Shown here: positions 19,701-25,700 of the stretch, piece by piece
Position numbering within the stretch: position 1 is the stretch's first letter
Layout of the letters: every line of letters starts with the position of its first letter
Origin: Stylophora pistillata
Taxonomy: Eukaryota
DNA length: 64,000 bases
Reading direction: 5' to 3'
Assembly (NCBI RefSeq): GCF_002571385.2
Contig: NW_019217790.1
Coordinates: 647,819-711,818, forward strand
The notes under the pieces: generated by a model
The model's input: only the letters and a program-made list of their open reading frames with translations
Told to the model about the DNA's origin: nothing
Database searches by the model: none
Program-made: the position numbers and the translations under genes

Positions 19701-22700
19701 GTGTGCTTTAAAAGGCAGAAAATGGAGCTACGTTATTGGTGGGAACATGGCAACGAGAAAAACACGAATAAATTAGTGGAATGAAAAGCGTTCGTTGATC
19801 CCTGTGGGATTTAGACTGCCGGTTTGAAAGATGAGCTTTTGTTCAAGAGTTTTACGGCTTTCCGTGCTACCTAAGTGTAAAGAAAGACCGCAGATTGTCA
19901 TATGTTGCTTAGAATGATTAGGTAAATTAAAATGTCTAGCGACTGGTTTCGATGTTTCCTTGTCATTCCTTTCCACGTCGCGAAGGTGTGACCGATTCCT
20001 CTATTCGCTCCGACGAAGGGCTAACTCTCAAATCGCCAGCTTTTGTAATGGTTACGGTGGCCAATTTACCATTTCAACTTTGTTGATATATCCAAATTAA
20101 GTGGTAGATAAACGAATTGCAGATAATTTCTCAATCTAGATAATCATAAACAGCTTGTCTGGATAAGCTAATATAAATTATTTACCAGAGTCAACACACA
20201 CCGCTAGTTTTCCTTACCTGAATGAAGGCTACCGACTTGCTTAGCTTCTTAGTAAAGTTGCCGAAGCCAAATCCTGTGATTCTAAATGTGCGAATGTCCA
20301 GGTCTTGATCCATTGTGTGCAGGATAATCACGTTCTGCGCAGGTGCGGTTGCATTTGGATCATTCTCAAACCTGATCTTCTAGTTCAGAGGAGTCTTCAA
20401 AGAAATAAAGCGTGCGTCTCCATATCCAGGGGGACCAATCATGTCATTCTGTAACACATCAAGGACATATAAAAAAAAAATCAATCTTCTCTCATAAGGA
20501 AACACCCAGAAAGAGTGAAGACTTGAAAATCAATTTTGAGTTAAGCTACTGAAAAAGCTGACAAAAGGAAAGAAACCGATTGTATATACAGTATACACCA
20601 CAACTGCATACGATGACTACGCATCATTTTTTCTGGAGCGCAATCTCGTAAAATCAAAATAATCTTGATCATAAACCCAGTCATTCAAACAGAACGTTGC
20701 CTAAATAAGTCTTTGCATGAACAGTATCGGCGAAAGTCTTAGAGGACAACAACTAAGATACGCATTGTTGTAAGGTTATTGATGGTGACCCAGACGATCT
20801 ACTGTATAGCAACATACATATTGCGACAACAAAGGAAACTTATGTATTTAATATTGGGACAAAAAAAAAACTTTTGTTAATGAATCATCTCACCGGATCC
20901 CAGGACCGAACCCAGTCGATTATCTTATTGACGAGGTCTTTTCCCAGCGGTGGAACAAAAATATTTTTAACAGTCTTATCGTAGATATCGTCTACGAAGT
21001 TGTCCACTGGTGAATACCCTTCAAAAGAAACGCAGCATTAACATGTGGAAGGAATAATCTCATGGATGATTTGCTGTCGAGTGTAAGAGCATGGGATGCC
21101 TCAACACTCATATCAACATGATAAGCGCTTCAATGACTGAACAAAGAAGGGAAACTCCCCGAAGAATTTCTTGCAGTGTACGAAACGGGAAAGATCCGTT
21201 CGAAAGGGGCAAAGTTTTAAGCCAGCGGCATACGAGAATTCCTCTGACTATTTTACTACTTTTCAATAGTCGGCTCGCGCTGTCTTTGAGTATATGGGGA
21301 GAAAATCATGCCTTCGTCTATCAAAACAGCGTACACTAAATAACAATTACTTTTCTTGGGCTCTTGCATTTAGTTGATGGACGAGTCTTCGATACAACAT
21401 TATCAAGCATAAACTAAAAATAAAAAGCACTCCTGATCTGCATGATCAAAACTCATTAAACCTCTCGTGGAAAGTTTCGAAACAGTTTTCCTTAAAGCAG
21501 TTACTGGGTGGACAGTAAAATCATTAGTACATCTACCTGTTCTCCATTTTGGTCTCTTCAGAGGTGTTATGGGCGACGAGATCACACTAGTTACACCACT
21601 TTCTAACGCCTGTCGCAAGTTTATATTCGAAATACCATTATCAATTCCTTGCTGTAGTACTGAGCTTCCAAAGCTAATTACAAACCCAGCTACGATTTCT
21701 GCATAAAGATAAATACATATAGAAATTATTATTATTGTCATCGTCATCATTAACAGGGGCTTATTGCTAAGCAGTCATTCAAATGAAGCATCCCATCCAT
21801 GGGTCAAATACCACCTATACAGAGAATAAAATGATGGAGTAAGCTACAATCTATACTTAACGTTCTCTTTTTAAGTATCGCCTTTTTATACTTACGTTCT
21901 CTTTAAAGTATAGCACTTACGTTGTCTTTTAAAGTATCCAGAGACGAACCCTCCTATGGCGCTTGACACGACTCCTGAAGATGGCAAACAATACTGACTG
22001 TAGTGCAATTCAGTCATTCAGCGTTATTGACAATAGTCTGGTCATTAGAGCGCTCTTCGATTGCCAGTAAACCAAAACCAAAGTAATCACAACAACCAAT
22101 CAGAAGAAAGGAAATTAAATTCAAGAGCCAATTAGAAATAAGAAGAAAAACCGACAAAACTGCCTAAAACGCGGGAAATCGCGGGCGACCGAGTCGTGAT
22201 TAGTTTTACTTTTGCATCTGATTGGTTGAGAGAGGGGCGGGAATTTTCGGGACCGAACCCAGAGCGAAGTACAGCAGAAGCAAAGCAATCCCGATTTGCT
22301 TTCGACATTTAATTGAAAATTGCTCAATTACACGCTTGTCAAATCATGAACATTTTCAAACAGATTTTCACAAAGTCTTTCGCGATGATATGTTAAAGCT
22401 ATTCACGATACTGGGGCTCTGACTTCGTCCTCGAGTCGTTTTTTGTTTTCATTGTCGGGTTAACTTTCCTGCTGCGAATGGTATGTTTGGAAACAGAGAG
22501 CGAGAGCCGCTCTTGGGAATATTGGCCCACGGTCGTGGCAGTACAGACCGAGCGCAGCGAGGGCCATACAAAAACAATAGAGGGCCAATATACCCCAGTA
22601 AACCTTAGTGGGGCTTCAGGAAGCCAGGTTAGTAAGTAGTTCATTGATATATAACTCTCTGGAAAAAAATATTTATTTTGATTTTTCCAGCTTTCACGCA

Positions 22701-25700
22701 CAACAGTACACAGCTTAGGACCATTTATTTCTGCGGAAACGGTCCGCAAGGCAATATTCTGACCAAATAAGAACCAATCAGAACGCTCGGATATACCACA
22801 AGACTACATTGCGGTACAATAAATCGTGGTATTCCGATCAAAATACGGGAGATTTTTTAATGCATTTGTTTACGTACCTCCAGTGGTTACCTTCTGACCA
22901 AGTAACTTCTGAGTGGCATAATAAGAAGCAACATTTGTCGATGCACCAATAATTGCTCCCGGGGCTCCAGCGGCTAGAACGGCTAAGGGAATAACTTTTC
23001 CTCGAGGATCTTTCAGCATGATAGGATTGTTGGCTGCCTACGAGTATAGATTGATACTTTTTCCTGAAAAACCTGAAATAAAAAAACAGACACCGTGTAA
23101 TCAAATGGATTTTTTTTTCAGAATTCTTAGCCTTTTAATGATATTGAAGACCTTCAAGTCTGGTTCTCTAACATCTCTACCAGAGTAGTTTGAAAGGCTT
23201 CGTTCAAGTTTCTGCTTTGATCATTCAGCTAAAATGTTTCACGTTGATAAACACGAATAGTTTTACTGGAGAAATCCATACCAAGTGGGTCGAAGCTAAG
23301 AAATCTTCCAAGCTGTGCATCATAGTGCCTGAACCGCATCCAGTATATATCTCTTAGTTCACGATCAGCGGTCACTCCCCATTGACCAACGAACGTGAAG
23401 TCCTGGGGCAACTCTTCATAGACTTCTAATATCCTACCAAACGGGTCATAACTGTACCGATTAACTAGATCACCTCTGGGACCCAGTACTCCTACGACAG
23501 ACCTGCAAAAGGGAGTAGATGTGTCGCAATATAAAAGAAATACATAGCGTTATGTTTCCCATTGTCAGTAACATACTTGGCTGGCTTTTTTCATTGCCAG
23601 AGAGCAGGGTAGCAGGCAGTACAGAAGCAGATTCAGTTCTACGCCTACAACTGAAGGAAATTTTCAAATAACAATGAACCTTTTACACCTTGATAAAACT
23701 TACCCCTGCGCGTCAAACTCATAATAATATAGATTTCCATCCGTGTCCATCAAAGCAACTAATCCAAGATCTTGGCAGTGAATAAAATATGTCACATTTT
23801 CACCGGTAATCTGCCAAAAAAAAGTTACCATTTACCGTGAAACTCAGAAATACATTCACACCTAAAAAGAAAAAAACGGAAGTGGTAATGTGACAAGAAA
23901 AACCAGCCAATCAAGTAATTTGTTTTAATGTCCTGATCCCCAATTGAGTCGGCCAGAACAGAATAAACCGGCATTTGATCCCGAAAAATTTCAAGTGTCC
24001 TTGAAAACTTTAACCTAATTTTTCTCGTCTGTCATTAAAACCCATGTTAATCTTCTTAATCCTCAACCATCGTTGCTTCTTTTTGGTTGATTAAAAATTC
24101 GTCAGTGTTTTCTGCCCTATCAAAAGTTTATTTGAAGATGTTTTCCAATTCAAGTCAATTCTATGTGACGATGCGCTCTCAGTGGCTCTAATTTCGCGAC
24201 GTAATTTTCTTTATACGCGTACCATAAGCCGATTGTTAACTTTAAATATCTAGCTGGATGTTGTGATCAGCGCAATTTTATGAAATCTTTTACCTGGCCA
24301 ACAATATCAGCTCCAGGATTCCCAAAAGGATCAATTATATATTGCACTTCATTTTGGCCGCATGTTTTCTTGTACAAGTTTCCAAAGCTGTCATACGCAT
24401 ACTTGCACCTGCAGTAACAACAACATTGAGTCAAATTTCTGGGAATGGTTTTTTGCATACGGCTGGGAACAAACTTCAGTAGCTGCCTATTTACTGGCCA
24501 GAAGTAAAGTATTGTGATAAACAATTCTGGAAAACTCCAACAAAATAATGTCAAGGAGTAGCACCGATGATATCACGATAATTCTCTCTCTCTGAATTCT
24601 TTTATTTTCTATTCATCCCCTTTTAGAGAAAAGAGATCATTAGGGAGGAGTGGATGGGTGGGTCCTACAGTCGCATCTTACTGGCACTTAGCATTCCAGG
24701 TTGTTGTTTGAATTACTATAGATTATCACACCTTTCCCTAACAAACAGAGGGGGGGAGCATACACCTAAGGAGGTTCCACCCTTCTGAGGTTCGCGCTTG
24801 AATAACGTTTACAATCAACGAAAGTAAAAATTTGGCTCCTTTTTTGGTCAATTTTCATACCTTTTGTTCGGAGTTTCAGCTTGCAGTAACATATTTTCAG
24901 TACTAAACTTGAATTTGACACTGTCATTCCGTAGATCTCTATTTGTCTTTTCCGCCACATTTCCATCCATGTCATATTTGATCTCATAATTTCCTACTGA
25001 AGTGTACTGGTTGATTTCATTGACAGAATATAAAGTCTTGTTACCAGGCTCTTCTGAAACCTGCTCTAGATTTTTTCGTTTATCGTAGGTGTATCGAACA
25101 ATTTTACCGTGTGGATATTTTGCCTCTATTAGCTGCGATGCTGCGTCGTATTTGTACCGCCAGATACCAGATGTTGTATTTTCCTGAATTCTTCGTCCTT
25201 TTTTGTCGTAATTGTACTCAAAGCAAGAGGAGATGCTGCCATTTGGGAAATAATTTACTAAACGAGACAGCTTTGAATTAACTGGATCTAACTCGTACTC
25301 AGAATAACCTCCGTTTCCAAGGACTCGTTTAGATAACATCCCTTGTGAGTTGTATTCCAGTCTCAGCAGAACGTCGGCCGTGCCCCTTGAGTCTACGCGA
25401 ACCACTTCCGATAACCGGTTAAGCTGGTCATACTTGTACACTATGTTTAACCCGGACACTTTTAGCCCCACGCGACGTTGGAATTCATTGTACTTGTAAG
25501 TGATGCTTTGACGGTTTGGATACGTGACACTAGTTGGTCTGTTTTCACCGTCATAAGCAACATCGATCGTACCGATGCCATTCATTGCTTGGACAATATT
25601 ACCGTCGCTATCATGTAAGAAATACGAAGAGCTGAGATCATCGACATCTTTTTTTACCTGCATTCATAGATAGAGGGATAAACAGAGAGAAGGGATCAAC

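Follow-up and report, generated by a model that had tools for sequence, protein, structure and literature searches.

In a 64,000-nucleotide stretch of the genome of the coral Stylophora pistillata (contig NW_019217790.1, positions 647,819 to 711,818; hereafter the window), the minus strand carries a multi-exon gene for a giant protein of about 4,000 residues, predicted to lie at the cell surface. The protein combines a CARDB stalk, a YD-repeat shell, an RHS core, a cargo of 152 residues, the domain of unknown function DUF7619, FN3 and EGF repeats. The gene is expressed, and we propose, as a reading that we regard as close to an even call, that the shell likely holds the cargo, that both ends of the cargo are likely cut, and that it is possibly set free to act against microbial membranes. 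An earlier note on this DNA, made from its letters alone, had pointed to a releasable membrane-active cargo bracketed by two Asp-Pro motifs.

The gene spans these motifs in an animal genome of 398 Mb. One of its large exons is 100% identical to S. pistillata LOC111330000 (RefSeq model P0001), and exons from about 43,960 to 12,830 were placed by tblastn with Oculina orthologs. Full-length orthologs comprise 3,700-4,300 residues and carry a signal-like N-terminus, HYR and Ig-like domains, CARDB repeats, the YD shell and the RHS core, followed in this order by the cargo, DUF7619, FN3 and EGF repeats; a C-terminal hydrophobic helix (Kyte-Doolittle 2.3-3.1) was found in six of the nine animal proteins listed. 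The core, cargo and DUF7619 exons are spliced in one transcript: an RNA contig from run X11 connects 23280-23500, 22877-23070, 21536-21698 and 20290-20448, and its unlisted gaps of 53 and 124 letters match the remaining two cargo exons. Stranded raw reads (X21) lie on exon bins in the direction expected of minus-strand RNA.

The RHS core carries RFLSFDPL/G at the exon end at 23282 and DPRG at 23010-22999 on the minus strand, as noted earlier. Its auto-protease motif is intact, with an Arg-5-Asp-24-Asp spacing equal to that of BiTLP, the teneurin-like protein of Bacillus inaquosorum, where the triad consists of R2111, D2116 and D2140 (10.1101/2025.11.11.687626; statements on this and all other cited works cover the parts of them that were available). 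Tse5 of Pseudomonas requires the same two Asp residues and cages a pore-forming tip of 16 kDa (PMC10684867). The core is complete, with Arg/Asp/Asp, PxxxxDPxG and TIGR03696 over cut-off, and the assembly holds a likely erroneous stop inside it. The YD-repeat shell is recognised by PF05593 (E 4e-29) and TIGR01643, and a DUF6531 match (E 0.006) stayed below the Pfam cut-off. Arg and both Asp are conserved in all nine other animal proteins listed. Judged by these residues, the triad is intact, unlike that of teneurins, which lost a catalytic Asp (10.1101/2025.11.11.687626). By analogy with Tse5 and BiTLP, the triad very probably cuts after DPxG, with a cargo of about 15-16 kDa caged.

The cargo (152 residues, 16.2 kDa, net charge +7) has a mass that fits a shell-sized slot and is encoded, as proposed earlier, by small exons of its own, four in number (23072-22878, 21974-21921, 21698-21537 and 21018-20894). 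The segments quoted in the earlier note and the closing VRSWDP/N were all found where it had placed them, and about 700 residues of folded domains do follow. Its description of the cargo as Gly-rich and hydrophobic did not hold: the glycine content is 10.5% compared with 8.8% in the shell, with three GxxxG motifs, and only two 19-residue windows exceed a Kyte-Doolittle value of 1.6, with a peak of 1.85. Four of five other coral cargos have no window above 1.6. The coral cargo is cationic, helical and moderately hydrophobic; the net charge was positive in all ten animal cargos measured (+5 to +18), and the AlphaFold2 model of an Oculina ortholog contains six low-confidence cargo helices.

Faster divergence of the cargo than of its flanks had been expected and was indeed found. 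Compared with Montipora, the cargo is 43% identical, the core 86%, DUF7619 90% and the stalk and shell 64-74%, with cargo divergence roughly double that of stalk and shell. Variation between paralogs, also anticipated, was seen in three Oculina paralogs (cargos 52-83%, cores 94-97% identical) and not in Stylophora, where we found at least one copy each of core and DUF7619 and at least one extra first-exon copy. Coral cargos are alignable with 39-83% identity; animal cargos drift within the family, and exon-wise swapping was not seen. Within the species, all five variant sites listed for cargo exon 3 alter the residue, in a small and incomplete list. The coral cargo is related to the bacterial cargos of loci L065 and L042 (z 12.2 and 11.6; none of 300 shuffles), and an ESM Atlas query with the cargo of P0012 gave a best score of 0.81 in bacterial clusters, which we treat as a lead only. 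As side observations, core and cargo of coral type stand without introns on the metagenome contig L099 (235-2310), where the sequence breaks off behind the third cargo exon in the manner of a truncated or incompletely spliced transcript, and the sea cucumber protein P0047 has a 204-residue cargo with a strongly Arg-rich amphipathic stretch, its short hydrophobic tail resembling a glycosylphosphatidylinositol signal.

Bacterial relatives were collected in a metagenome scan (80 loci) and a genome scan (22 loci). In 35 of 40 open reading frames with an RHS core, a count that includes near-duplicates (L035/L036, L028/L031) and four animal proteins, the core is followed by a cargo of 108-258 residues (median 162) and then by an Asp-Pro module, which is DUF7619 (DPN) in 28 and a VWD domain (NDPH or NDPR) in seven; the remaining five are either cut short or ordinary Rhs proteins. 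Sister bacterial proteins have shells 89-95% and modules 95-99% identical, with cargos of only 20-32% identity, and the cargos of L033 and L027 are 48% identical while their closing modules differ (DUF7619 and VWD, respectively). Judging from these alignments, the relatives swap unrelated cargos into a slot that is, like the layout around it, the same. Over the Pfam cut-off, 25 bacterial cargos matched only VWD (four) and Lnb_N (one; L026, E 2.3e-7). From their motifs we presume papain-like cargos in L024, L027, L033 and P0019 and HNH-like ones in L072 and L039.

Both Asp-Pro motifs named in the earlier note are present, but they are unlike in kind: the first is the RHS catalytic motif and the second occupies positions 1-2 of DUF7619. 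The window exons match DUF7619 (PF24595) with 27.6 and 37.8 bits (cut-off 27), profile position 1 is Asp in L002, and Asp-Pro stands at 91 of 101 DUF7619 domain starts. The second motif is therefore no feature of the cargo, and a cargo-specific or chance motif was ruled out. In the AlphaFold2 model of the ortholog, the confidence (predicted local distance difference test) jumps from 39-67 to 97 at the Asp-Pro and is about 97 across DUF7619, and matches to CnaA begin at the Pro. The domain is a CnaA pilin-like sandwich (VIA-align Z 13.8 to the pilin SpaD, root-mean-square deviation 2.5, 131 aligned residues). In this fold and in matching Pfam over cut-off it resembles CLIPPER-related CnaA domains, for which isopeptide bonds are predicted; it may differ from them in the putative isopeptide Lys/Asn pair, whose positions were inferred in this analysis. 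Both residues are present in one of 75 rows, the coral ortholog has Met and Pro there, and the subfamily conserves an acid cluster instead. DUF7619 is mentioned once as an isopeptide-related family (10.1101/2025.04.25.650565).

Support for a cut at this second motif comes from VWD domains, for which self-cleavage of GDPH as GD/PH is established in animals (PMC10880436). Domains of this kind (FCGBP, MUC2, RGM, BMPER) likewise have an Asp-Pro opening a beta-sandwich, and VWD occupies the same slot as DUF7619 in the seven bacterial relatives and in P0190. DUF7619 differs in its CnaA-type fold and its D-P-N-D motif; the coral domain matches DUF7619 and CnaA pilins with no VWD match, and its cleavage is putative. 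In all four proteins with a VWD before DUF7619, the latter has lost the Asp-Pro together with three other acids. None of the ten rows without Asp-Pro (four behind VWD, six RHS-less) retains the distal Asp, which 89 of 91 others keep. Among 150 proteins selected by the shell alone, 12 have DUF7619, ten of them with Asp-Pro, one with the VWD swap (the cyanobacterial P0190) and one with neither (P0185). The swap and the acid loss would fit a catalytic site decaying when replaced, in a pattern of few events, motif-selected loci and one counter-example. On balance, we consider it somewhat probable that DUF7619 cuts itself at the Asp-Pro bond with the help of acids close by. It would then be an unrecognised self-cleaving module, and the earlier suggestion of a second cut at SWDP gains comparative support from the VWD swap and the joint loss of acids, while its Asp-Pro proved to be a conserved domain start that also occurs in RHS-less proteins. 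Threading out of the shell had been offered as the alternative to this cut; the two are not alternatives, because the chain would have to exit the shell in either case.

Members of the family were found in Stylophora, Oculina, two species of Montipora, Orbicella, Actinostola, Nematostella (LOC116611783) and the sea cucumber Apostichopus, and the core Arg/Asp/Asp and the Asp-Pro are kept in the coral, Nematostella, Actinostola and sea cucumber orthologs. Six animal rows lie on one side of a FastTree branch with 99% support, their order fits vertical descent, and the family looks vertically inherited in animals. The trees (a quick tree and FastTree, leaving out duplicates, fragments, L092, L081 and L034) have long branches, and for this reason no bacterial donor was placed. 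We infer a bacterial ancestry of the family because its domain order is shared with planctomycete-type, chloroflexi and cyanobacterial proteins. The literature covered, mostly open-access and without supplements, holds in its available parts no description of a coral or anthozoan RHS-CARDB or YD-repeat family, of an Rhs-VWD swap or of DUF7619 cleavage; the architecture tables of two studies could list the family (PMC3482391; 10.1101/2025.04.25.650565).

The Rhs/YD polymorphic toxins Tse5 and BiTLP, whose caged tips are membrane-active, share with this family the YD shell, a weak DUF6531 plug, the Arg/Asp/Asp core and a variable cargo of about 16 kDa, and BiTLP was the best PDB sequence match of an ortholog (E 5.5e-26). 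In these toxins the cargo is the C-terminus, and the BiTLP shell has no exit (10.1101/2025.11.11.687626). In contrast, the cargo of the family described here is followed by 300-1,400 residues (388-858 in the animal orthologs), and an Asp-Pro module closes its slot. Introns, EGF repeats and a predicted membrane anchor further distinguish the animal forms. The hypervariable cargo behind the core is swapped in bacteria and drifts fast in animals.

Teneurins are the textbook animal protein with a YD shell. Common to both are an animal surface protein, a shell of bacterial type, EGF repeats and a chain running on beyond the shell. Teneurins are type II proteins with an FN-plug, an NHL propeller, no triad and an ABD/Tox-GHH end, and the available parts of the sources report them absent from cnidarians (10.1101/2025.11.11.687626; PMC3278476; PMC13018210). 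The coral family, in contrast, is predicted to be type I, has kept its triad intact and is present in anthozoans and in an echinoderm; the N-terminal signal-like segment, the EGF repeats after the shell and the C-terminal hydrophobic helix of its orthologs do not follow the type II layout, in which EGF repeats precede the shell. Pfam gave no match to FN-plug, NHL propeller or Tox-GHH in P0001, P0011, P0012, P0023, P0031, P0034, P0040, P0047 and P0051. On sequence grounds, we class the family as a variant of the RHS polymorphic-cargo proteins whose animal branch is distinct from the teneurins.

The features of the gene in the window are as follows.

50528 to 50716, minus strand: likely first exon, signal peptide-like segment and then THFRGG (tblastn with the N-terminus of ortholog P0031, 44% identity, E 1.5e-11; joined to the gene by homology).
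29428 to 43963, minus strand: N-terminal stalk exons with HYR_4C, Ig-like, CARDB repeats, PPC and further Ig-like domains (tblastn of P0011; Pfam on P0001, P0011 and exons).
33392 to 33394, minus strand: in-frame stop in the stalk; the RefSeq model begins downstream.
23694 to 28838, minus strand: weak DUF6531-like plug and YD-repeat shell exons (Pfam RHS_repeat E 4e-29; TIGR01643; tblastn).
23282 to 23502, minus strand: first part of the RHS core with the catalytic Arg and first Asp, GRFLSFDPL (TIGR03696 over cut-off; RNA contigs X11 and X18).
22878 to 23072, minus strand: end of the RHS core (DPRG at 23010-22999) and first 40 cargo residues (X11 contig).
23038 to 23040, minus strand: in-frame stop in the RHS core between the two catalytic Asp codons, a likely assembly error (four runs differ, two letters).
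21921 to 21974, minus strand: cargo exon 2, 54 nucleotides (AG/GT ends; size fits the X11 contig gap; bin covered).
21537 to 21698, minus strand: cargo exon 3, 162 nucleotides (X11 contig; all five listed variant sites alter the residue).
20894 to 21018, minus strand: cargo exon 4, ending in the Asp-Pro (20899-20894) that is the candidate second cut and the first residues of DUF7619 (size fits the X11 gap).
18074 to 20448, minus strand: DUF7619, CnaA-type beta-sandwich, in three exons (20448-20218, about 19175-19059, 18265-18074; Pfam over cut-off in two of them).
20380 to 20382, minus strand: in-frame stop in DUF7619, a likely assembly error (six runs differ, two letters).
12830 to 17746, minus strand: FN3, EGF, a beta-rich region of 240 residues and four EGF exons (tblastn, fold search).

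Within the first intron, at 44327-44467 on the plus strand, the first exon (signal-like segment and THFRGG) recurs as an inverted copy that is 63% identical. A run of about 900 N letters marks an assembly gap in an intron at 39350-40250, and an extra Ig/FN3-like exon at 38258-38557 is common to Stylophora and Montipora and not found in Oculina P0011.

Taken together, we suggest the following mechanism. The shell would fold round the cargo, and the chain would exit through an opening, by inference from teneurin, towards DUF7619, FN3, EGF repeats and membrane anchor. The RHS cut would free the start of the cargo and the Asp-Pro cut of DUF7619 its end; the latter cut would also release the loaded shell and its adhesive stalk from the anchor. 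The cargo, a cationic amphipathic peptide, would then act on membranes, most plausibly in surface defence, a putative role that we put forward tentatively. A wider proposal is possible and rather doubtful: the DPND-type DUF7619 might be an unrecognised self-cleaving module that forms, with the RHS core, a double-cut class of anchored proteins with swappable mid-chain cargo. One member would have stayed functional in animals from the cnidarian-bilaterian ancestor onwards, serving as a caged antimicrobial launcher and representing a second bacterial YD-shell acquisition beside teneurin.

Several results weigh against this interpretation. The cargo is only modestly hydrophobic, no Pfam family reaches cut-off for it, and the cargo of the sea cucumber could not be aligned with that of the coral. 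Neither tblastn nor a hydropathy scan found a membrane anchor exon in the window. A crude scan of the next open reading frame in the bacterial loci, several of whose contigs end early, gave no clear pattern of an immunity gene; the coral side was not searched. As the metagenome and genome loci were chosen with IRFEN patterns, the presence of DUF7619 and of the IRFEN Glu is selected. Regarding the second cut, 63 of 69 proteins that lack an RHS core retain the Asp-Pro, in many cases downstream of plain adhesin repeats, and the motif may therefore be structural. The folds listed by fold searches were pilin-like and included no self-processing module known so far, although such a list could miss one. 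Instead of GDPH, the bacterial VWD domains carry NDPH or NDPR, at which cleavage is putative, and cleavage of GDPH in FCGBP stabilises rather than releases (PMC10880436). On the shell tree the VWD swap represents two changes, the DUF7619 domains without Asp-Pro behind VWD form one lineage and not four independent tests, and P0185 has shell, cargo and DUF7619 with neither Asp-Pro at the domain start nor VWD.

The conservation of Asp-Pro in RHS-less adhesins would also fit a single cut, in which the RHS core cuts, the Asp-Pro stays intact and the cargo remains tethered to DUF7619, FN3, EGF and anchor, to be unsheathed as a membrane-inserting or signalling segment when the shell is pulled off. 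The signal peptide and C-terminal hydrophobic helix of coral and anemone orthologs agree with it, as does the pilin-like stalk fold of DUF7619, a domain listed among isopeptide-type stalk domains (10.1101/2025.04.25.650565). We consider a single cut unlikely, since it does not account for a GDPH-like VWD in the same place together with the joint loss of four acids from DUF7619, and enzyme-like bacterial cargos (L026, Lnb_N) would be hard to deliver if tethered. Domestication as in teneurin (10.1101/2025.11.11.687626) is the other functional alternative: both cuts may occur, and the animal cargo would be a remaining leader, or a peptide with a role in signalling or adhesion, rather than a weapon. 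That coral cargos are alignable and not swapped, that they keep only the Gly/Ala helices which precede other tips in L072 and L039 and have no enzyme tip, and that the family looks vertically inherited all speak for this idea. We nevertheless judge it quite improbable, because the coral family keeps the triad in which teneurins lost an Asp and the cargo is far less conserved than stalk and shell, is not the same in tandem paralogs and shows amino-acid variation at exon 3 within the species.

Finally, three or four nonsense mutations might have turned the Stylophora gene into a true pseudogene from which no cargo is made. The earlier note was silent on the stops at 23040-23038 and 20382-20380, both present in the window; position 33394 holds another, and 41983 may hold a fourth. 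The RefSeq protein ends at the 23040-23038 stop, and no anchor exon was found in the window. At 23038 all rows listed (X1, X6, X11, X18), and at 20380 all rows listed (X1, X6, X8, X11, X17, X18), have a letter other than that of the window and hence a sense codon; as variant tables give listed rows only and assembled contigs omit rare variants, the window letter could still occur in any sample. At six sites (20380, 21311, 21567, 21573, 22348 and 23038) the runs carry two letters and the window a third. One spliced contig crosses both 23038 and 20380, and the flanks are 86-90% identical to intact orthologs. A pseudogene is thus very improbable, and the window stops are very probably assembly errors at variable sites, an interpretation based on the two-letter pattern and, for reads, on 23038 and 20380; some cargo residues of the window may be affected likewise. 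True nonsense polymorphism was considered and dropped, as a second non-window letter occurs at the same sites and the "other = 0" cells of X21 and X24 do not indicate the letter of the window. Neither read-through of the stops nor an altered genetic code needs to be assumed, because DNA runs also differ from the window. The Stylophora assembly may accordingly hold false stop codons at variable sites, and if third-letter sites occur genome-wide, many false stops and substitutions would be expected in this reference.

A second animal family that has kept its cutter intact and whose cargo evolves fast would illustrate what a bacterial weapon can look like before disarming, and as Nematostella has a copy, this can be tested in a laboratory animal. 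The mid-chain position in an anchored protein represents a new organisation of polymorphic cargos, and the comparison offers a testable function for a widespread domain of unknown function. For coral biology, the gene is a candidate for surface defence that the reference annotation truncates. In the RHS-less proteins P0008 and L020, a related variable domain before the Asp-Pro recalls what we take to be colicin M-like lipid II enzymes; the Asp-Pro module may shed cargos without a shell.

High-copy intronic repeats at 18500-20260 and 22030-22800 swamp the read depth, and a short open reading frame fragment at 19776-20000 in one intronic repeat presumably belongs to a GIY-YIG element. The neighbouring gene at 4300-6450 on the minus strand contains a YHPHG motif and reads like what we assume to be a diacylglycerol/monoacylglycerol acyltransferase.

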